Below, in pieces: positions 4,248-54,613 of a DNA stretch of 64,000 nucleotides. The position numbers and the translations under genes were made by a program. Every line of letters starts with the position of its first letter. The first letter of the stretch is position 1. Origin of the DNA: Escherichia virus TH41; the sequence record MT446412.1; one strand, written 5' to 3'. Under the pieces are notes generated by a model. The model saw nothing but the letters and a program-made list of their open reading frames with translations, made no database searches and was not told the DNA's origin.

Positions 4248-4881
4248 ACGTCTTTAAAGCCTCTGCGAGAGCCATAAAGGCGTCATCGGCACTGGTATCG
4301 GCAACAGCCGTTTGTGATTCTGTAATCTGCTTTGGTTTGACCCAAGCGTCCGGAGCACTTGGCCCCCATACTGCGTCTACTCCAACCGTCAATTTAAAAC
4401 CTTCATTAACGATGCTATAACCTTTTGCTGATTTAGTCAGGGAACCGAGTCCACGACTAGATACGCCAGGAATCCAACCTGCTCTTATATTCGCAGCAAG
4501 TTTATCACCTGGACCATGGTCGCCTTCGATAATACGCGCGCGGCCATATACATCATTCCCTTTCCACCACATTTCCTCGATAATAATTGCTGCCTGCATA
4601 GGGTCAACGTTTGCGCGAGGTGGATGGTTTAATTCTCCAAGAGACTGCTTGGTTTCAACCTGTTCGGCGATATAGTCCGCAACGGCTTTTTCCAAAATAT
4701 GTTTAGGATAAAGTCGTTTATTACGGTTAACAACTTCAGCTTGTAGGAAAATACCTTCAATATAAAGTCCTGGCTTTAAACCGCTGCTGGAACCATCATG
4801 AGATTCCAACATCGGTACACCATCTTTAATTTCGCCCGGTTGACCCCAGTGTTCGATTAGTAACTCTGGTTTCTGTTCCAT
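4243..4881 (-). CDS. 21: Prohead protease gp21
   Basis: 212-aa ORF, same length as T4 gp21 as recalled; synteny between 68 and 22; 1-nt overlap with gene 68 stop. Confidence 0.85.
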   Translation of the reverse strand: MEQKPELLIEHWGQPGEIKDGVPMLESHDGSSSGLKPGLYIEGIFLQAEVVNRNKRLYPKHILEKAVADYIAEQVETKQSLGELNHPPRANVDPMQAAIIIEEMWWKGNDVYGRARIIEGDHGPGDKLAANIRAGWIPGVSSRGLGSLTKSAKGYSIVNEGFKLTVGVDAVWGPSAPDAWVKPKQITESQTAVADTSADDAFMALAEALKTL

Positions 4882-5309
4882 TAATCAAGTCCGAATGCTT
4901 TACGCTTAGCTCGAGCTTTTTTGCGCTTGCGCTCTGCTCTGATTTGCGTAGATGGGTTTGCTCTTTTCGTTTTAGTAGCCAGACGGGCAATTTGACGACG
5001 TTTAGCTTTAGAAAGACCAGTTGTTTGGAAAGCATTACGCTTACGAGTAGCTAGGTCTTTTGTGCGGGTTAACTCACCGCGAGACGATACATGTTTAACG
5101 ATAAATTCGTTAAGCTGAACACCTTCATTCAGAGCGCCGATAACCGTTGCTTTTTCGTATTCACCGGCTGCAAACATGTTTTCTACAATAATATTTATAT
5201 CGTCTTTTTCTAAGGCTTCAGATAATGAATCAAATTGTCCCTGAGCTTCTTCGGAAACACTTTCGATGTTTTCAAGAGTTAATTCGTAATCATCAGGGAT
5301 AATAAACAT
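4881..5309 (-). CDS. 68: Prohead core protein gp68
   Basis: 142-aa ORF with basic Lys/Arg-rich C-terminus; position between 67 and 21. Confidence 0.7.
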
Positions 5310-40002: not shown

Positions 40003-40036
40003 AGGGGGTATACAAGCCCCCTGCTTTAAGGCATAA
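40003..40036 (+). promoter_or_regulatory. Stem-loop plus early promoter-like element
   Basis: ggggg-tatacaag-ccccc hairpin followed by CATAAT and the tccatactgagttacac leader. Confidence 0.35.
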
Positions 40037-40078: not shown

Positions 40079-40384
40079 ATGAAATTCATCATCAACCTGG
40101 CGCTTGTTGACTTTGATAAAACTGGTAATTTCGCATCTGCTGAAAATATGATTCGTAACACCAAGTTCAAAGTGCAAGTCCAACAGGCGGTAGCAAAAGA
40201 GTTCTTTACTGATAAATTAACTAACGTTGTTAATCACCTGAATGTGCAAGTTAAATTCACTCGTGAAGCGGAAACTACTGTTGCATTTGATTTTGACTGC
40301 CAATACCATGATGAATATGTTCGCCGCATCCTGGATATTGTGTCTGATGAACTTTATTATGGTGTGCAGGAAAACAAAATCTAA
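40079..40384 (+). CDS. Hypothetical protein (101 aa)
   Basis: ORF with GGAG SD; no recognisable motif. Confidence 0.5.
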   Translation: MKFIINLALVDFDKTGNFASAENMIRNTKFKVQVQQAVAKEFFTDKLTNVVNHLNVQVKFTREAETTVAFDFDCQYHDEYVRRILDIVSDELYYGVQENKI

Positions 40385-40456
40385 ATTAGTGCTTTAATGG
40401 GAACATGATAGTATGTTCCCTGGATAATAAAACTTTAACCATCTGAAGGAAATACC

Positions 40457-41050
40457 ATGAATACTTTAAAGAAACTTGTTGAATTCATCCGCTCCAAACT
40501 GGGTACTGCAATGGCACAAAACCTGTCTATTGAAGACCAGTATACTAAAGCTGCTTCTACCCTGATTGATAAGATTACTGAGCTCCAGACTGCCCATGTT
40601 AAGTCTGTTAATGAAGAAAAACGCATTCGCGAGTTAGCGAATGAAAAAGACCAGCTCGCTTCTTCTAAAGAACGCGAAATTCGTAAACTGATTGCTGATG
40701 GCGCAGATGTCCAGGTCCATGCTAAACTGGGTCTCCTTTATCGTCGCACTGCTAAACAACTTCGTAAGAAGGCAGATGATTATGTTGAAATGCGTAATGA
40801 AATTAAATTGAAAGTTAAAGAGCTGGATGATTCTCGTCAGGAACTAGCTGTTAAACTGGAATATATCCGCGAAACCCGTAAGGTGTCTGCGCTGGGTATT
40901 GCAACCGCAGATGATGTTGTTGAAATCGCTGCATTGACTAAGATTGATATTGAAGACACTCTGATGCGTGTTGAAACCTTCAAAGGTCCACAGGTTGGTG
41001 TGGATACCACATCCGCTGACATTGAAGAATATATCAATTCACTTAAGTAA
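40457..41050 (+). CDS. Hypothetical coiled-coil protein (197 aa)
   Basis: Heptad-like charged helical sequence throughout. Confidence 0.5.
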
Positions 41051-41057
41051 GATAAAA

Positions 41058-41074
41058 AGGGGGCTTTGCCCCCT
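41058..41074. other. GC stem-loop (agggggc-ttt-gccccct)
   Basis: Perfect 7-bp stem; T-run present only on the minus-strand side. Confidence 0.4.
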
Positions 41075-41094: not shown

Positions 41095-41649
41095 ATGAGC
41101 TTATATACTGACCTTCTATCAAATGTAGACTGGTTTGGTGGTAGTGGTCTTGCCACTGAAACTAACACAGTTCTTTATAGAATCCGCGGTGACCTAGGTT
41201 ATTCCAATGATTTCTTAAGAAGAACAACAAGTCGCGGCGATACTACAAAATTGCCTTTTATTTTTGCTTTAGCTGAAGACCTTTCTTTTGCAGATGCCTT
41301 GGAAATTATTGATGTAAATCTGGGTATTCAACGAGTGGAATTCGGCGGGCTGAGTTATTCCGTGTATGCATTAAACGACCCAAGCGATTATAAACAACTT
41401 ATTGATGCGGATGATTATGACCATTTGGTATGTTATTTGATGTTGGAAAATGGTGACCACTTTGGAATGGTTGACCGCCGCCCAACTTATACTGATATTA
41501 AAAATTATGATAAAGATGAGCTTCTTGATTTGGCGGCTGAGTACACATTAGAGAGTCGTAAACGGAAACGTAAGCTTAATCGTTTTATTGCTGAATGTCG
41601 TGAATATGCTAAAGGGGTTCAAAATGCGAACGTTATATCTGCCAAGTAA
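41095..41649 (+). CDS. Hypothetical protein (184 aa) with C-terminal FIAECR motif
   Basis: GGAGAGGAG SD; C-terminal ...KLNRFIAECREYAKG shared with 41970 and 46317 ORFs. Confidence 0.5.
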   Translation: MSLYTDLLSNVDWFGGSGLATETNTVLYRIRGDLGYSNDFLRRTTSRGDTTKLPFIFALAEDLSFADALEIIDVNLGIQRVEFGGLSYSVYALNDPSDYKQLIDADDYDHLVCYLMLENGDHFGMVDRRPTYTDIKNYDKDELLDLAAEYTLESRKRKRKLNRFIAECREYAKGVQNANVISAK

Positions 41650-41983
41650 ACCAGAAAAATTTGTATACGCAGACAAGATTGATAAAGACCTTATGCCTCC
41701 ATTTGGAGCTTTGTCCATGTGCATCGTTGGGGTTATAATGATGGTGCTTTGTGGGGATATGAATATCATTAGTGTTGGAGTCGCCTGGTCACTAATAATT
41801 GCAGCACCTTTTATTACAGTCCTGAGCATGATATTGATAAATGTGTGGCATCAAAATCATATGAATAAAGGATATCGTGGGCGAGTTAAAGAGTGGGAAC
41901 AAAAATGCGTTTCCCTGCAAGAAGAGCACAAAATTAAATGTGCCGAAGAATTTATTAAGGAGGTTCGTAATGGAACGGCCTAG
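41624..41983 (+). CDS. Membrane protein (119 aa)
   Basis: Two hydrophobic segments; start placed at internal ATG MRTLYLPSK. Confidence 0.45.
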   Translation: MRTLYLPSKPEKFVYADKIDKDLMPPFGALSMCIVGVIMMVLCGDMNIISVGVAWSLIIAAPFITVLSMILINVWHQNHMNKGYRGRVKEWEQKCVSLQEEHKIKCAEEFIKEVRNGTA

Positions 41984-42323
41984 TCTTGCATCACATGTTT
42001 ATCAATTGGCTGAATATGATATTGGTGCCAATTTATTATTAGGGATTGTCACCGCCATGCTTGGTGGTTTGGTTGGTCTGGTAATGACCACGGTTATGGC
42101 TGCAATCGAGGGAGTCATGCCCATTGAGATGGGTTTCTTTATGATAATCGCTCCGGCTGTTGTGTCTTATTTTATCCCTGTTGTGTATGATATCTGTCAC
42201 ACAAATGCAGTGAATGCTCCTAGTCGGAAGAGATATGGTTCAGCAATGGCTGAGTATAATAAGTTCCTGAACAAAACAAAACGTAATGAACTTGAAACCT
42301 TTATTAAGGAATGTAAATCATGA
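41970..42323 (+). CDS. Membrane protein (117 aa) with C-terminal FIKECK motif
   Basis: Hydrophobic segments; C-terminus ...KRNELETFIKECKS. Confidence 0.5.
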   Translation: MERPSLASHVYQLAEYDIGANLLLGIVTAMLGGLVGLVMTTVMAAIEGVMPIEMGFFMIIAPAVVSYFIPVVYDICHTNAVNAPSRKRYGSAMAEYNKFLNKTKRNELETFIKECKS

Positions 42324-42610
42324 ATAAAATTGAAATTGCTATCCCCAAGTATTATGATGAGAAATCTGCAGAAAAAGCTATCTATTCTCTTCTAAATAAG
42401 ACCTCTGAAATTGAAAAACACTGTGAAGAAATCGCAGATGAATATGGTATCGAATTCAGCACTGGTGATTACGGCACCGGCCGTACATATCACCCAGTCG
42501 GTTATGAATGTTCCGAATGGTTCGCTCACCATATTGAAAACAACGGCGGACAAGTTGAAAACGGCATTGTTACTGTTGGTGCCTGGGTTTCCTCTTCTGA
42601 GGTGTGCTAA
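42320..42610 (+). CDS. Small protein, W-x-SS-x-x-C family member 1 (96 aa)
   Basis: C-terminus ...VGAWVSSSEVC; ATGA overlap with upstream gene. Confidence 0.55.
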   Translation: MNKIEIAIPKYYDEKSAEKAIYSLLNKTSEIEKHCEEIADEYGIEFSTGDYGTGRTYHPVGYECSEWFAHHIENNGGQVENGIVTVGAWVSSSEVC

Positions 42611-42611
42611 T

Positions 42612-42893
42612 ATGATGAATGATTACCGTAAAAATAAAGAACTGGCTAACGCAGTAAATGACATCCATAAAGCTATTCGTCGTGCTGAGGAAATTGCAAA
42701 CAAATATGAGACTCATTTTAATATATACCCTGCTCGCGGTATGGGCGGTGACTATTATTCTCCTGGCGCCCTGAAAGCTGACCTTGCTCATTGGGAAGAA
42801 CATGGTCATCCTGAATGGGCTATTGTTAATACTCATGACTATACAACTGACCTGGAAAAAGGCGGTTGGGTGTCCTCCTCTTCTGAATGTTAA
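42612..42893 (+). CDS. Small protein, W-x-SS-x-x-C family member 2 (93 aa)
   Basis: Start placed at ATG directly after previous stop; C-terminus ...GGWVSSSSEC. Confidence 0.55.
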   Translation: MMNDYRKNKELANAVNDIHKAIRRAEEIANKYETHFNIYPARGMGGDYYSPGALKADLAHWEEHGHPEWAIVNTHDYTTDLEKGGWVSSSSEC

Positions 42894-42902
42894 GGAACTA
42901 TT

Positions 42903-43100
42903 ATGTCTCGTGAACTAGATTGTGCAATCCGTACTGCCGCGGCAGCTATTGAAAACGTTATCCAGATTTGTAAAGAAGAGCGTGAAGAAGCTGATATCTA
43001 TATCGATGGTGTTCGTGACCTAGAACGACATATCACGCTTTATAATGGTTGTATTACTATTAGTGGTACCTCTTGGGTGTCCTCCTCTTACGAATGCTAA
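42903..43100 (+). CDS. Small protein, W-x-SS-x-x-C family member 3 (65 aa)
   Basis: C-terminus ...GTSWVSSSYEC; AAGGAA SD. Confidence 0.55.
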   Translation: MSRELDCAIRTAAAAIENVIQICKEEREEADIYIDGVRDLERHITLYNGCITISGTSWVSSSYEC

Positions 43101-43109
43101 GGAAATAAA

Positions 43110-43328
43110 ATGACTGCTAAAACTGTTAAAGAAATTGAAGACCAAATCCGTGCACTAATCTGTGAAGGTGAACAACTGGCCGATAAAACCGGCGAACACT
43201 TCCGTAGCGGTGGCGAAGAATATATTCCAGCTTCTAGTCCGGAATATAACGATTATGAATGGGTTCGTGACGAATATTGTATTCCAGAAGGTGAAGGTTT
43301 CTGGTTTAACTCCTCTATGTCTTGCTAA
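43110..43328 (+). CDS. Small protein, W-x-SS-x-x-C family member 4 (72 aa)
   Basis: C-terminus ...GFWFNSSMSC; AAGGAA SD. Confidence 0.5.
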   Translation: MTAKTVKEIEDQIRALICEGEQLADKTGEHFRSGGEEYIPASSPEYNDYEWVRDEYCIPEGEGFWFNSSMSC

Positions 43329-43337
43329 GGTGATAAA

Positions 43338-43571
43338 ATGACTACTGCTGTTGAACATGCTGAATTAGAAAAAGCTGCCCTTGAACTGGCTGCACTGTAT
43401 AAGAAAGTAAAAGATATGGCTTTTGCTCAAGATTTCGGTGTTGAGCTTGATGATTATGACGGCGAAGTCCGTCTTGAAGACTGGTTGAACAGTTCTTGTT
43501 ATGGTGAAGAAGCTGGTCGTACCTTCGTTGCTCGTGCCGATGGTAAAATCTGGTACCCAAGTTCATGTTAA
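43338..43571 (+). CDS. Small protein, W-x-SS-x-x-C family member 5 (77 aa)
   Basis: C-terminus ...KIWYPSSC; AAGGTG SD. Confidence 0.5.
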   Translation: MTTAVEHAELEKAALELAALYKKVKDMAFAQDFGVELDDYDGEVRLEDWLNSSCYGEEAGRTFVARADGKIWYPSSC

Positions 43572-43792
43572 AATTGAAAAAACGATACATTCGTAAAATA
43601 AATGGTCTTCGCGATTATGCCAAAGGTTGGCCATTAAATCTTATTATGGCTGATAGACATCCACGTTACAATACCGAGTTGACTTATTACAAAAAGTATG
43701 ATTCGTATTGTCGGTCTAAAGCGGGTCGTTTAGATGGTTCCTATGAAGAATATTTCGGTAAAAAACCTACTCGCATTTCGTTAGGAAAATAA
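43565..43792 (+). CDS. Hypothetical basic protein (75 aa)
   Basis: ORF overlapping the upstream stop; Lys/Arg/Tyr-rich. Confidence 0.4.
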   Translation: MLKLKKRYIRKINGLRDYAKGWPLNLIMADRHPRYNTELTYYKKYDSYCRSKAGRLDGSYEEYFGKKPTRISLGK

Positions 43793-43823
43793 TTTAATCA
43801 CAAGGATGTGATAGGAGGACTTT

Positions 43824-44153
43824 GTGCATAAAGATTCAGTATTCAAATATCTTTTGAAAACAGATAAAGAATTCTATATGAATGGGCAAGCTTTCTTGTT
43901 CGTTCGCGGTAAACGTGAGATGTTTTACAAATGCGACCTCTCAATGCATCATCATATGTATCATACCCACGGTGAGTTTATACTGGGGTTCTCTGGTGAC
44001 GAAACCAGACATATAGCTATGTACTACGACCATTTTAAGCTCAATGATTGCGGTGACAACGCTCTGGTCTGGAATCCATCTTGGCGTCGTTGGGATAAGG
44101 TAGACAACGATAAATTATTTTTAGAATATTGTAGAAGCAGTATACAAGTCTAA
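43824..44153 (+). CDS. Hypothetical His-rich protein (109 aa), apparent GTG start
   Basis: ATAGGAGGA SD 4 nt before GTG; HHHMYHTH motif. Confidence 0.4.
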   Translation: MHKDSVFKYLLKTDKEFYMNGQAFLFVRGKREMFYKCDLSMHHHMYHTHGEFILGFSGDETRHIAMYYDHFKLNDCGDNALVWNPSWRRWDKVDNDKLFLEYCRSSIQV

Positions 44154-44217
44154 AAAACTGTGTTACTATACTCCTATCAACTGATGACAATCACGTTATC
44201 AGAACAGGAGAATAAAA

Positions 44218-44418
44218 ATGTCTATCGCAAACGAATTAATCAAAGTTCTGAACGAAGCCAAAGTCAACCAACTGGAGGTTAATCTCCAGGAAGTTTCTGA
44301 TGGCATTAAAGTAACCATCAGTGGTGATTACGCAGGCGTCACAGAACGTGTTTGTGATTCTCTGGAAGAAGTAGTTTCCTGCATTAAAAGAGATATTTAC
44401 GCATACGGTATTATTTGA
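44218..44418 (+). CDS. Hypothetical protein (66 aa)
   Basis: AGGAG SD; promoter-like cassette upstream. Confidence 0.5.
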   Translation: MSIANELIKVLNEAKVNQLEVNLQEVSDGIKVTISGDYAGVTERVCDSLEEVVSCIKRDIYAYGII

Positions 44419-44428
44419 GGAAAATATT

Positions 44429-44596
44429 ATGTATAATGTTCTTATTGTTTTTGTCACTCACCCGCAAGGTGGAGTAAGACAGAATACTTCTCAAGTGGTT
44501 CAATTTTCTTCACTAGAGGCCGCCAATCTTGCTGCCTCACGAATTGAAGCGAAAAAATCTGAACTAGGTAAATATGAAGTAACTCGTCTTTATTAA
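44429..44596 (+). CDS. Hypothetical small protein (55 aa, below ORF-track cutoff)
   Basis: ATG after GAGGAAAA SD; fills an otherwise empty gap between genes. Confidence 0.35.
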   Translation: MYNVLIVFVTHPQGGVRQNTSQVVQFSSLEAANLAASRIEAKKSELGKYEVTRLY

Positions 44597-44611
44597 TCTG
44601 AGGAAAATATT

Positions 44612-45571
44612 ATGATGTTAGTTATTGGTTCTCGTGCATTGCATAACGCTGGTCTGATTGAAAGTCAGAAAATTGAAAATTCTGATTGGGACTTTATCGC
44701 TGACCAAGGTTCTTGGAACCACTTTAAAGCACGTATGTTCGGTGCTCATGTTCCTGTGGATAACCCTAACGTCCAAGCTTTTAAATGTATGTACAATGGC
44801 AAAGAAACCTATTTTGAAGCTTATATTGTCCGTGCCCTGACCAACGTACGAGAAATTACTGGTGAGCTTCAAGACGAAGATTTCACCTCAAGTTATCGTC
44901 TCCTGAAATATGCTGAAAATCATATTAAAAAAGATCGTCTTACAGGTTTTTACTGGGCAACTCCTGATATTTGTCTGGCAATTAAATTATCTCATCGTTA
45001 CCTGAAGAACAATCCATTCTTCCTGAAGACCATGAGTCATATTAATTACCTTCGCAATAAGGGTGTTGTTCTTAATGATGAACTGCAGAAAATCATGTTG
45101 CAGCGTCAGGCAGAAACACTGTCATACAGCCACCCTAAACTAGACGTGGGCAAGAAAACTTTCTTTAATGATACAATCTATACCCTTGACCATGACTCCA
45201 TCCACGAGGCTGTGGCGCTTGCTGATAAGCCTGCATATAAGTTCTATATGAAGGATGATTCAGAAGTCATGACCTCACGTGAAAAATTTGAAGCACTCCC
45301 TGATGTTATTAAACTGGCAGGGGTTTATGAAGAAGCATGTGTGCTTGCTCTGGAGCGTTCGCAGGTTCCAAATGAGTTCAATATCTCTCCATCCGTGAGC
45401 TTCCATATTGCGCTGGAAAAAGTCTGCACCTCCATTACTTCTGGATGGTTCCGTGAGTATGCCTGGGAACATTACCAGGAAGTGGTTAATATGTATAACA
45501 CTCTGGGGCGCGAAGACTATGTTAAACGCTTCAAGGCTAACCAACATTTAATTCGTCCTTTCACAAAATAA
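44612..45571 (+). CDS. Pol-beta-type nucleotidyltransferase-like protein (319 aa)
   Basis: N-terminal VIGSRALHNAG...ENSDWDFI resembles the GS-x(n)-SD-h-D-h nucleotidyltransferase motif. Confidence 0.45.
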   Translation: MMLVIGSRALHNAGLIESQKIENSDWDFIADQGSWNHFKARMFGAHVPVDNPNVQAFKCMYNGKETYFEAYIVRALTNVREITGELQDEDFTSSYRLLKYAENHIKKDRLTGFYWATPDICLAIKLSHRYLKNNPFFLKTMSHINYLRNKGVVLNDELQKIMLQRQAETLSYSHPKLDVGKKTFFNDTIYTLDHDSIHEAVALADKPAYKFYMKDDSEVMTSREKFEALPDVIKLAGVYEEACVLALERSQVPNEFNISPSVSFHIALEKVCTSITSGWFREYAWEHYQEVVNMYNTLGREDYVKRFKANQHLIRPFTK

Positions 45572-45573
45572 GT

Positions 45574-45610
45574 GTGTACATCCAAGTGGGACCATGACAC
45601 AATGGTCCCA
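45574..45610 (+). promoter_or_regulatory. Early promoter cassette with 10-bp perfect palindrome
   Basis: GTGTAC followed by gtgggaccat-gacaca-atggtcccac. Confidence 0.35.
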
Positions 45611-45630
45611 CAATCAATGAGGAAAATATT

Positions 45631-46317
45631 ATGAACAGTCCAAAAACTTTTAATTCTCAAGCTCGTGCAGTAGGCGGTTTCGCTGGTAAAATTTCTAATG
45701 ATAAAATCAAAAACGAAACTATGTTCTTCAACAGCTCATTGGCTTTCGCTTTTGACAATGGCGGTCCTATTACTCGCAGCTTTATCATGAACCTGCCGGA
45801 TGATTGGAACACTGACCAGGTTGTATTTGATTCTCGGGTTCATATGTTGATGCCTGGTTGGTATCCTGCTATCCCTGGGTATCACCATGATGATGTGCCA
45901 CGCCCGGATATTCCGGTTGGTCAACACTTTATTACTGCAGGGCAACCTGATTATGATAATCCTCGTTACCATTCTGAACATATTCTTGGTCTTGTTAACG
46001 CCGATGTGTGTCCTACTTATTTTGCAACCGGAACTGCGCAATTTAGTCAGATTCCTGAAGGCGAACTTATCTATCGCCAGTGGCATAAAGAAGTTCTGGA
46101 AAAAATTGAGTCCAATGAATTAACCAAGTGGGATGCTCCTGACCGCACGTTGCTCCAGTTTGATTGGCAGACATGGCATACAGGTTCTCGCGCAGTAAGT
46201 AATGGTTGGCGCTGGTTTGGTCGTGTGTCTCGTAATACCGACCGTGTTAAAAAGATTACAAATGAAATCCGCGTTAATGCTCAAGTATATCTGGAATTCC
46301 CTATGGAGGGCTGGTAA
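45631..46317 (+). CDS. Hypothetical protein (228 aa)
   Basis: GAGGAAAA SD; His/Asp-rich central region (GYHHDDVPRPD); no confident domain call. Confidence 0.5.
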   Translation: MNSPKTFNSQARAVGGFAGKISNDKIKNETMFFNSSLAFAFDNGGPITRSFIMNLPDDWNTDQVVFDSRVHMLMPGWYPAIPGYHHDDVPRPDIPVGQHFITAGQPDYDNPRYHSEHILGLVNADVCPTYFATGTAQFSQIPEGELIYRQWHKEVLEKIESNELTKWDAPDRTLLQFDWQTWHTGSRAVSNGWRWFGRVSRNTDRVKKITNEIRVNAQVYLEFPMEGW

Positions 46318-46904
46318 TGGCCCTTTATGAACCCGGTTGTATGGGTGTTGATGTAAACTTCATCCGCCGGGCAGAAAATGCAGGTATAATTGTATCAAGA
46401 GATGAATTTATGATTACCAAAAAATATTGGGCGAACCTTGATGATGGTGATGAAGGAATCAAGGTGGAAAATGTTGATTGGTCGCGATGCAATCGTCATG
46501 TGAAAGAGCTTTTAATTAAGGAATATAAAATGGGATACATCATTAACGGACATCAACCAGAACCACTCAAAGAACAGACACCCGACCCATTAATTTCTTA
46601 TAGCAAGAAATATGGATTTCGTACCTGGAGTGATGAATTTGATAAGTTAATTTGTTCCAGGTTTTATGCCTGGTCTGGAATCTTATTTTTACCATTCCTG
46701 TGGTTTTTCCTGACAGGTAAAAATGAAGCACCTGTAGCTGTAATGGGCGCGTGCTTTTCTACTGCTCTTGCTGGACTTATTGCATCATTTTTATGGACTA
46801 TGGTTATTGAAGTACCTTTTCGTATTTCTAAAGTTAAAAAGGTATATGACGATATCACTAAGAAAAATACATTGAACTCTTTTATTGAGGAATGCCGTAA
46901 ATGA
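46317..46904 (+). CDS. Membrane protein (195 aa) with C-terminal FIEECRK motif
   Basis: Hydrophobic segments in C-terminal half; C-terminus ...KKNTLNSFIEECRK. Confidence 0.5.
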   Translation: MALYEPGCMGVDVNFIRRAENAGIIVSRDEFMITKKYWANLDDGDEGIKVENVDWSRCNRHVKELLIKEYKMGYIINGHQPEPLKEQTPDPLISYSKKYGFRTWSDEFDKLICSRFYAWSGILFLPFLWFFLTGKNEAPVAVMGACFSTALAGLIASFLWTMVIEVPFRISKVKKVYDDITKKNTLNSFIEECRK

Positions 46905-47137
46905 GTATTGCAATTTATATTAAATCCGAGTCATGTGATTCTTATCTGTATTCCTATGACACTGGAACATCAGAAGAGAAAATAAAAGAAGATTTAGAAA
47001 CTGACTTGGATATGTTCCGACCAATTTCCGATTACATGATTCAAGTTTCTGATAGTGAAAGCCCTTCATTGGAAAATAGACTTGAATTTTTAATGAGCGA
47101 TATTTTTAACCAATCATGGAAACGAGACGATGAGTAG
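46901..47137 (+). CDS. Hypothetical acidic protein (78 aa)
   Basis: ATGA overlap with upstream gene. Confidence 0.45.
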   Translation: MSIAIYIKSESCDSYLYSYDTGTSEEKIKEDLETDLDMFRPISDYMIQVSDSESPSLENRLEFLMSDIFNQSWKRDDE

Positions 47138-54040: not shown

Positions 54041-54613
54041 ATGGCGAGTTTAATTTATCATTACGCAGCAATGAATGCAGGCAAAACAGCTTCATTGCTG
54101 ACTGCAGCTTATTCCTATAAAGAGCGTGGAATGAGTGTGCTTTTGCTAAAACCTGTTATTGATAATCGGGACTCGGAAGGCGAAATTAAATCACGCATCG
54201 GTATTAGCCAGGAAGCAAACCTGGTAACGGCCGACATGAACCTGTTTGAATTCTATAAATGGGCCGAGTCTCAAAAGGATATCCATTGTGTCCTGGTCGA
54301 TGAAGCTCAATTTTTGTTACCAGAGCAAATTGACCAGTTAGCTCAAGTGGTTGATAATTACAATATCCCCGTTATGTGTTACGGGTTAAGAACAGATTTT
54401 CGGGGTCAATTATTTCCCGGTTCGGCCAGACTTCTGGCTATTTCGGATAAACTGGTTGAATTAAAGGGCGTCTGTCATTGCGGCCGGAAAGCAACCATGA
54501 CCGCTCGAGTAATCGACGGTGCTGCTGTAAAGGACGGCGAGCAAGTATTGGTCGGTGGGAATGAATCGTACGTATCTTTGTGCAGAAAACATTGGCTCGA
54601 ATTAACAAGCTGA
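54041..54613 (+). CDS. tk: Thymidine kinase
   Basis: P-loop AAMNAGKT, VDEAQF, C-terminal zinc-ribbon Cys pairs (CHCGRKAT...C). Confidence 0.9.
   Translation: MASLIYHYAAMNAGKTASLLTAAYSYKERGMSVLLLKPVIDNRDSEGEIKSRIGISQEANLVTADMNLFEFYKWAESQKDIHCVLVDEAQFLLPEQIDQLAQVVDNYNIPVMCYGLRTDFRGQLFPGSARLLAISDKLVELKGVCHCGRKATMTARVIDGAAVKDGEQVLVGGNESYVSLCRKHWLELTS

Follow-up and report, generated by a model that had tools for sequence, protein, structure and literature searches.

Genes and C-terminal tails in the window

Three genes in a 64,000-nucleotide stretch of Escherichia virus TH41 (MT446412.1; the whole stretch is called the window below) encode proteins that share a short C-terminal motif, referred to here as the Cys-Arg tag. 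Gene A (41095..41649), gene B (41970..42323), and gene C (46317..46904) are all on the + strand and end in KLNRFIAECREYAKGVQNANVISAK, ELETFIKECKS, and LNSFIEECRK, respectively, as a sequence-only reading of the window had reported. The 6 kb surrounding the tagged open reading frames (ORFs) has 86-94% identity to T4-type phages of the genera Gaprivervirus and Dhakavirus, with SP18 and P896 as the top matches, and on this similarity the window is that of a Gaprivervirus, an SP18-like T4-type phage. Comparison with T4 puts gene A at the position of e.5, gene B at that of e.3, and gene C at that of e.2, and the annotated order in SP18 for this region is e.6, gp144, e.4, gp142, a block of small genes, e.2, gp128, nudE, and e. 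In T4-type phages the tag bearers are co-oriented, often overlapping accessory genes between e.6 and nudE/e; the set includes e.5, e.3, and e.2, e.4 with its degenerate copy, and additional genes for soluble or membrane proteins that depend on the genus. Immediately 5' of the tagged genes is the conserved anchor gene e.6 (40457..41050, + strand), the 197-residue product of which has 75% identity to T4 e.6 and is a putative PspA/Vipp1-like coiled coil.

The gene A protein has 184 residues, belongs to phrog_8788 (E=5.7e-110), and is predicted to be soluble; its tag, L-N-R-F-I-A-E-C-R (41575..41601), is followed by 15 more residues. Gene B, the e.3 counterpart (phrog_2330, E=4.2e-45), encodes a predicted membrane protein of 117 residues with a basic tail and the tag L-E-T-F-I-K-E-C-K (42291..42317). 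The e.2 homologue encoded by gene C (195 residues; phrog_2203, E=4.3e-65) has an N-terminal soluble part, a predicted membrane hairpin at residues ~105-133 / 138-168, and a basic tail that closes with L-N-S-F-I-E-E-C-R-K (46872..46901). Lesser copies are found in two more ORFs of the same strand. The e.4 homologue (41624..41983; 119 residues; annotated e.4 in SP18; phrog_2604, E=3.5e-45) is a predicted membrane protein with the tail EEFIKEVRNGTA, in which the degenerate copy EEFIKEVR (A-E-E-F-I-K-E-V-R at 41942-41968) has Val in place of Cys. A small soluble protein of 109 residues (43824..44153; JS98 gp124-like; phrog_9796) ends in LFLEYCRSSIQV (also shown as DKLFLEYCRSSIQV), with a weaker copy at 44118-44135 that has no hydrophobic residue at position -3, counted from the aromatic residue of the tag; this tail is kept in seven IMG/VR loci.

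The pattern FI.EC[KR] occurs exactly three times in a six-frame translation of the window, and all three occurrences are the C-termini of A, B, and C. Lack of significance of the motif against a composition-matched background had been set beforehand as the refuting outcome. When 102 proxy genes were each shuffled 5000 times, the pattern was expected 0.004 times anywhere in a protein and 0.0006 times within the last 30 residues, and none of the 5000 shuffles reached three occurrences, so the motif is significant. The broader core [FWY][IVL]..C[RK] closes five genes in the window against 0.08 expected. One of these five is thymidine kinase (54041-54613; tail YVSLCRKHWLELTS, YVSLCRKHW); this match falls within the Pfam TK domain and recurs unchanged in T4 tk, and it is treated as unrelated. 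An ORF at 40242-40397 with the sequence NFIMVCRK is out of frame within ORF 40079-40384, the counterpart of the annotated SP18gp146, and is treated as a chance match.

For the definition of the tagged set, the pattern [FWY]-[IVL]-x-x-C-[RK] was taken no more than 30 residues from the C-terminus. It is matched by A (FIAECR), B (FIKECK), C (FIEECR), and ORF 43824-44153 (FLEYCR); the e.4 tail FIKEVR fails at the Cys and is classed as a degenerate copy for that reason. Position -3 is Leu in A, B, and C, Asp in ORF 43824-44153, and Ala in e.4, the last two falling outside the hydrophobic residues expected there. With the e.6 stop at 41050, the tags span 41575-46901 on the same strand, within ~8 kb downstream of e.6. 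All three genes of the sequence-only reading thus carry the motif, but they are not the only ones, as e.4 and ORF 43824-44153 bring the bearers in the window to at least five. The motif itself had been given as N-x-F-I-x-E-C-(K/R), of which the N and the E are not conserved among relatives.

Conservation and constraints of the Cys-Arg tag

A search of other T4-like genomes, the check proposed with the sequence-only reading, found the tag in T4, in 13 GenBank phages of 12 genera, in IMG/VR, and in metagenomes. The T4 tails are EKFVKECREYVKAITIPSK for e.5, KEFVIDCRKIK for e.3, NNFITECRKLK for the read-through of e.2, and the degenerate KFVKESR for e.4. About 149 of the 169 kb of T4 were scanned (1-50 kb by script, 49-99 and 119-169 kb with a degenerate DNA pattern read by eye, 99-119 kb left out), and in this portion no genes other than e.2, e.3, and e.5 have the C-terminal motif, apart from the unrelated match in tk. 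Ten further GenBank phages, namely a Jiaodavirus-like Klebsiella phage and members of Marfavirus, Winklervirus, Biquartavirus, Ishigurovirus, Karamvirus, Gualtarvirus, Pseudotevenvirus, Mosigvirus, and Dhakavirus, were read downstream of e.6 and have one to six strict copies each; examples are FIKYCRK, WIRSCRK, WVKGCRK, FVDYCRR, YIRHCRGE, and FINDCRK, and the Pseudotevenvirus copy is FIHSCKK. In Serratia phage LC53 the protein at the e.4 position has the canonical end EYFIKECR. The tail is retained in orthologues with 15-35% identity.

On the strand of e.6, the tag is confined to the downstream side. In 42 IMG/VR loci anchored on e.6, tagged ORFs account for 138 of the 833 same-strand ORFs downstream and none of the 762 upstream, with four on the opposite strand; in 22 metagenome loci the corresponding counts are 53/233 downstream versus 0/199 upstream. 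The ORF that starts no more than ~60 nucleotides past the e.6 stop encodes a tagged soluble e.5-like protein in most loci, and in some phages (for example, those like avDM5) this e.5-like gene is the sole tagged gene. Because some phages have a single tagged gene, the tag cannot serve only to join tagged proteins to one another. The two IMG/VR loci without strict tags (L048 and L050) have SFINYC-I and SFVEYC-I in the two ORFs right 3' of e.6.

The tag has the consensus Φ(-3)-[E/N/D]-x-[F/W/Y](0)-[I/V](+1)-x-x-C(+4)-[R/K](+5), where Φ is hydrophobic. Among 115 distinct tails, position -3 is L, F, I, or V in 93%, the aromatic residue is F (107 tails) or else W or Y, the next position is I (87 tails) or V, and the basic residue is R in 104 and K in 11. 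The hydrophobic residue at -3 provides independent support, because this position was absent from the search pattern. The same applies to position +4 when it is left free in the search: Cys is then found there in 123 of the 152 downstream matches versus 0 of the 24 upstream. The tag is located 0-24 residues before the C-terminus, mostly after a Lys-rich stretch, and the constrained positions -3, 0, +1, and +4 map to one face of an alpha-helix. This arrangement fits a tag that forms one face of an amphipathic helix.

The codons used for the tag are varied. An alignment of 36 stretches coding for the tag has Arg as CGT, CGA, CGG, CGC, AGA, or AGG and Cys as TGT or TGC; F, W, and Y are swapped for one another, as are I and V, and there is synonymous variety at every conserved residue. 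Since Arg uses six codons and Cys two, and the aromatic and aliphatic residues interchange, selection has acted at the protein level. A Shine-Dalgarno-like 4-mer is present within the two x-x codons of 61% of the tags that end no more than two residues after C-R, versus 4% when five or more residues follow. In gene B, AAGGAA in the K-E codons (42309-42314) is at the same time the Shine-Dalgarno sequence for the gene that starts at 42320, and in gene C, GAGGAA in the E-E codons (46890-46895) has this double role for the gene that starts at 46901; the stop codons of both B and C overlap the next start as ATGA. The K-E of B and the E-E of C are therefore explained in part by the double use of these codons as a downstream ribosome-binding site, which makes a small, clean case of overlapping constraints. 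On the comparisons above, the tails of A, B, and C are shown to be copies of one conserved protein-level C-terminal motif.

In the T4 reference sequence e.2 is interrupted: the gene (102 residues as annotated; 4501-4985 of locus L003) has two in-frame stops, and read-through gives ~160 residues that match the intact 162-residue e.2 of Tequatrovirus. In T2 (locus L004) nudE directly follows e.3 and e.2 is absent. An interrupted e.2 in T4 and its absence in T2 indicate that e.2 is dispensable in laboratory strains.

Tagged proteins, the e.6 product, and neighbouring genes

Hydropathy agrees with the description of A as soluble and of B and C as having hydrophobic transmembrane segments. Gene A has no 19-residue window above 1.5 on the Kyte-Doolittle (KD) scale, gene B has windows above KD 1.5 from approximately residue 17 to residue 77 that are read as two membrane segments, and gene C has one such stretch at ~137-168, the second helix at ~105-133 being present only in a low-confidence AlphaFold model. 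Hydrophobic windows in the e.4 homologue are at residues ~22-76. In the AlphaFold2 (AF2) model of C the tail extends the second membrane helix, with low confidence (predicted local distance difference test score, pLDDT, of 57). The mean net charge past the last membrane span is +4.6, and because a strongly basic segment follows the last span, the positive-inside rule would have the tag face the cytoplasm. The tag of the membrane bearers would then be on the same side of the membrane as the soluble bearers.

A conserved C-terminal module on differing N-terminal bodies had been proposed from A, B, and C, and this holds in the wider set. BLAST clustering of the 138 tagged ORFs without their tails gave 33 clusters; at least one membrane segment is predicted for 71 of the ORFs and none for the other 67. 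When membrane and soluble families were compared with hhalign, only the tail aligned, the best local alignment covering 8-23 columns. Homology beyond the tail was found between e.3 and e.4, which align with 93% probability across the end of the second membrane segment plus the tail, and among three e.5 groups including gene A, which are homologous over ~160 columns (92% probability for e5b versus e5c and 95% for e5a versus e5b). Gene A also has a weak match to phrog_2607 (E=0.002), which is probably the e.5 family, and judged by these alignments it is a divergent e.5 orthologue and not a novel body. Its own family is shallow, with 27 relatives that all have at least 70% identity, and the e.5 body has no informative match in Pfam or the PDB. 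Only three columns are nearly invariant in the e.5 family, and two of them are the tag's F and C; in the e.2 family alignment the terminal F-I-x-E-C-R-K is invariant and the membrane region divergent. Full-length tblastn matches of gene B, with 24-28% identity, are located directly 5' of e.2 in Tequatroviruses. All 31 relatives of C have a precomputed PF26896 hit; a Pfam search of C gave nothing relevant with a Pfam copy that lacks the PF26896 model.

The product of e.6 appears to be a remote relative of PspA/Vipp1, which are members of the ESCRT-III superfamily. A profile of 12 e.6 sequences searched against the PDB has Vipp1/PspA as the top match (E=0.011), colinear over residues 1-140, and the Pfam model PF04012 (PspA_IM30) matches one of the 12 members (E=1.6e-4), with no hit for the e.6 of the window itself. 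The AF2 model, built from 26 sequences, has helices at residues 3-20, 25-80, and 86-145 with a pLDDT of ~90 in the hairpin, and shows the PspA/Vipp1 layout of an N-terminal amphipathic helix a0 followed by a long a1/a2-3 hairpin. The best nine Foldseek matches of this model in the PDB are all Vipp1 (E from 7.6e-4), followed by the archaeal ESCRT-III protein CdvB2 and by PspA. The template modelling (TM) score against PspA 7abk is 0.52, and the model superposes on 6zvs_A with a root-mean-square deviation of 2.9 Å over 123 columns. In a viral structure library, a giant-virus Snf7 protein and a phage protein annotated PspA/IM30 also matched. In sequence, the e.6 family is a small one that stands apart, and 1.84 billion proteins yielded 46 representative clusters of it. 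The C-terminal helix of e.6 fits a relaxed form of the tag, Φ-x-x-Y-[ILM]-x-x-L-K, with Leu for Cys; the relaxed tag closes 33 of 38 e.6 ORFs versus 0 of 762 control ORFs, and is present in very distant family members as well.

Elsewhere e.6 is annotated as hypothetical or, spuriously, as a 'host specificity protein'; it is conserved across Straboviridae and has relatives in Ackermannviridae. In metagenome contig L086, from a divergent T4-like lineage with a distant e.6-like protein (P0123), a NUDIX gene precedes the e.6-like gene, and genes for Band_7 (SPFH) and AAA ATPase proteins are a few kb upstream. No strict Cys-Arg tags are present in L086. Band-7 domains are reported partners of PspA (PMC7619361).

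The spacers on both sides of e.6 contain G+C-rich hairpins of the G5C/GC5 type (AGGGGGC...GCCCCCT), one at 40003-40022 and the other, GGGGGC-TTT-GCCCCC, at 41058..41074 on the + strand in the e.6/e.5 spacer, identified from the sequence and a hairpin scan. There is no T-run 3' of these hairpins on the coding strand, and they may be RNA stability or processing elements.

Several other genes are interspersed in the cluster. Five consecutive ORFs for small soluble proteins (42320-42610, ~42621-42893, 42903-43100, 43110-43328, and 43338-43571) all end in W-x-S-S-x-x-C at the stop, with the tails WVSSSEVC, WVSSSSEC, WVSSSYEC, WFNSSMSC, and WYPSSC. This second C-terminal Cys motif is found in 33 of the 42 e.6 loci, with up to five copies per locus and 109 ORFs downstream of e.6 versus eight upstream, and its genes are interleaved with those of the Cys-Arg tag. 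The ORF at 46901-47137, always placed after the last tagged membrane gene and before nudE, encodes an acidic protein of 78 residues (phrog_2900) that ends in SWKRDDE; Klebsiella phage Roth34 and members of Winklervirus, Karamvirus, Gualtarvirus, Mosigvirus, Dhakavirus, and Muldoonvirus have conserved counterparts, with tails of the form SW[ENDK].... Two conserved genes embedded in the cluster, 44612-45571 and 45631-46317, encode a DUF7277+DUF7275 protein of 319 residues and a phrog_1843 protein of 228 residues. The C-terminus of the latter, VYLEFPMEGW, is identical in Marfavirus, Mosigvirus, and Dhakavirus, and the DUF7275 protein has a conserved near-C-terminal DY[IV]xRFK that fits the relaxed tag with Phe at +4.

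The tag as a possible docking helix, and alternatives

A shared interaction tag, also suggested by the sequence-only reading, is the best-supported reading of the tail, as we infer from its conservation and distribution. In its specific form, the Cys-Arg tag could be a helix by which proteins dock to one shared partner, most likely the e.6 product, a proposal for which the chances are judged to be slightly short of even. Such a helix would gather otherwise unrelated proteins on that partner at the inner membrane face, and the best candidate for the partner would be the product of e.6, which is the gene found ahead of the tagged set in every case. The small membrane proteins would have the role of anchors in the membrane or of regulators, with e.5 as the soluble adaptor, an arrangement that would parallel the accessory membrane proteins working with PspA in bacterial psp operons. 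The tags might either mimic the C-terminal helix of e.6 on e.6 itself or bind a third factor together with e.6.

If the tails were instead a relic of paralogy, the genes would have arisen by tandem duplication followed by N-terminal divergence or accretion, and each tail would act within its own protein, as a membrane-binding amphipathic helix or in homo-oligomerisation, folding, or insertion, with no shared partner. This explanation, which is considered unlikely though it must be taken seriously, agrees with the adjacent, co-oriented, and often overlapping genes, with the homology among the three e.5 groups, with the e.3/e.4 alignment (93% probability) from the end of the second membrane segment through the tail, and with cross-hits of B to the PHROG of e.2 and of e.4 to that of B; an amphipathic helix after a Lys-rich stretch is also typical of interfacial helices. 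However, the same tail is present on soluble bodies with no detectable similarity to the membrane ones apart from the 8-23 aligned tail columns. Membrane proteins need no membrane-targeting helix, and an interfacial helix needs no invariant Cys-Arg, whereas Cys occupies +4 in 123/152 downstream matches versus 0/24 upstream. An origin at the level of nucleic acid (a downstream ribosome-binding site or a recombination or regulatory cassette) or a chance artefact is so improbable that it is regarded as excluded: the F, I/V, C, and R positions use many synonymous codons, including both Arg families, the motif is equally conserved where 5-24 residues follow it with no start codon nearby, 0/5000 shuffles reproduced it, and 138 tagged ORFs are downstream of e.6 and none upstream. 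What such an origin does explain is the Shine-Dalgarno-like 4-mer of the x-x codons (61% versus 4%) next to a stop that often overlaps the following start as ATGA, and only these x-x positions have been shaped by the downstream Shine-Dalgarno sequence.

Two other readings attribute a function to particular residues. The Cys-Arg pair may be a chemically active site, either a redox site or metal ligand (Zn, or Fe-S bridging tails), a site of covalent modification, or an Arg target of the T4 ADP-ribosyltransferases Alt, ModA, and ModB. T4 encodes Arg-specific ADP-ribosyltransferases, the genes of which are annotated in the T4 record, and a basic residue beside a cytoplasmic Cys would lower the pKa of the Cys. 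Cys is the most discriminating residue of the motif, Arg or Lys is always next to it, and the neighbouring family ending in W-x-S-S-x-x-C also closes with a conserved Cys. Even so, this role is improbable, as the e.4 family and some others have Val, Ser, Ile, or Met for Cys with the rest of the tag kept, which hydrophobic packing explains more simply; in addition, L048 and L050 have Ile for Arg, each tail has a single Cys with no second ligand conserved nearby, and there is no similarity to known metal-binding or modification motifs in Pfam or NCBIfam. A processing or turnover signal, such as a C-terminal degron or a site resembling the I-x-E of the T4 prohead protease or the capsid-targeting sequence, has a smaller likelihood still. 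The tag is C-terminal and exposed, as a turnover signal would be, and the T4 capsid-targeting sequence ends in ...QEFIAE, which resembles the FIAE of gene A, gp21 cleaving after [L/I]-x-E. That sequence is N-terminal, however, while the tag is C-terminal, and Glu is found at +3 in only 44 of the 115 distinct tails, so I-x-E is not the conserved feature. Assignment of the tag as a capsid-targeting sequence or gp21 site was rejected for these reasons. Unlike terminal degrons, the motif may be followed by up to 24 variable residues, and membrane proteins are unlikely to be capsid cargo.

Docking to e.6 has its own difficulties, and several observations weigh against it. The adjacency of the tagged genes could come from tandem duplication alone. 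The e.6-PspA link is remote (E=0.011 against PDB sequences), and there are no bona fide PspA or PspA-sized proteins among the 46 significant e.6 representatives. The e.6 translation in the window has no cysteine, so the tag Cys cannot act through a disulfide with e.6. Covariation between D124 of e.6 and the Arg of the tag was suggested by L048 and L050 with their C-I tags, but it is contradicted by Muldoonvirus VP8, which has Gly124 with C-R and C-K tags. The AF2 model of C is of too low a quality for its N-terminal domain to be used in a fold search. Finally, strict tags are lacking beside the e.6-like genes of Ackermannviridae phage ISTP3 and of two distant metagenomic lineages, and other small membrane proteins come next there instead; because of these cases, the tag is a non-obligatory companion of the e.6 fold.

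Small inner-membrane partners of PspA-type proteins are known, PspB/PspC and LiaI-LiaH being examples, and the model systems are those of E. coli, B. subtilis, and M. tuberculosis. Bacterial PspA is usually encoded in operons with accessory proteins and generally works with them (PMC7619361). The region resembles the Psp operons in that a gene for a PspA/Vipp1-like protein, e.6, is followed on the same strand by genes for small inner-membrane proteins with predicted cytoplasmic tails and for a soluble protein. It differs in that the system is phage-encoded, a shared Cys-Arg partner tag has not been described for Psp, and e.6 is far from PspA in sequence; the e.2-e.5 products have no Pfam or NCBIfam hit to the PspB, PspC, PspD, LiaI, or PspM families, so that only the logic of the operon is common to both. 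The C-terminal MIT-interacting motif (MIM) helices of ESCRT-III proteins dock into MIT domains, and the MIM1 consensus is (D/E)xxLxxRLxxL(K/R). The tag is likewise a short C-terminal amphipathic helix by prediction, in which positions i, i+3/4, and i+7 are hydrophobic and a basic residue comes last, a spacing seen both in the end of e.6 and in tags of the form L-x-x-F-I-x-x-C-R-K; however, the tags are on bodies that are not ESCRT-III proteins and have an aromatic residue for the MIM Arg and Cys for Leu, and the resemblance is a lead only. No MIT-domain or Vps4-like partner was identified in the window.

Short conserved C-terminal modules on many unrelated bodies are also known from LPXTG, PEP-CTERM, and GlyGly-CTERM proteins, in which a motif, a membrane helix, and a basic cluster follow one another and cleavage takes place outside the cell membrane. 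The Cys-Arg tag differs from these in that its place is behind the membrane segments and the basic stretch, its predicted location is cytoplasmic, and proteins without a membrane segment have it as well. Each of the window proteins is a clear member of its own family in PHROGs 2203, 2330, 2604, and 8788 (probably also 2607) and PF26896, but these resources treat e.2-e.5 separately, with the function unknown or given as 'membrane protein' (phrog_2203), and neither the cross-family tail nor its confinement to the region 3' of e.6 was found described there or in the literature. Literature searches on T4 e.2-e.6 and on phage-encoded PspA gave no account of the motif, of its link to e.6, or of the link of e.6 to PspA, and a paper on how the system of phage shock proteins (PSP) evolved has no mention of bacteriophages or T4. 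Both the motif and its connection with a PspA-like neighbour therefore appear to be undescribed.

The docking reading can be extended to a broader hypothesis, which is doubtful: T4-type phages may carry a PspA/Vipp1 (ESCRT-III-like) membrane module of their own. In this module e.6 would be the polymerising core and the tag a MIM-like label recruiting fast-evolving soluble and inner-membrane adaptors (e.5, e.4, e.3, e.2, and others that differ by genus), to keep the host's inner membrane stable or to remodel it while infection proceeds, with lysis timing, superinfection, or envelope stress as examples. If this is true, the host 'phage shock' system would have a counterpart encoded by phages, one that recognizes its partners through a new type of motif.

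The genes of the T4 e.2-e.8 block have carried the annotation 'hypothetical' ever since that genome was completed. Four or five of these genes, together with dozens of genus-specific neighbours, are now united by a nine-residue helix motif and tied to e.6. If the tag is only a relic of paralogy, it would still explain how this hyperplastic region has diversified, with new bodies placed on a constant tail. If it is a docking signal, it would provide a handle for finding the partner and a rule by which new members could be recognized in any T4-type genome, and the region may hold the first phage-encoded ESCRT-III-like system with its own adaptor code.

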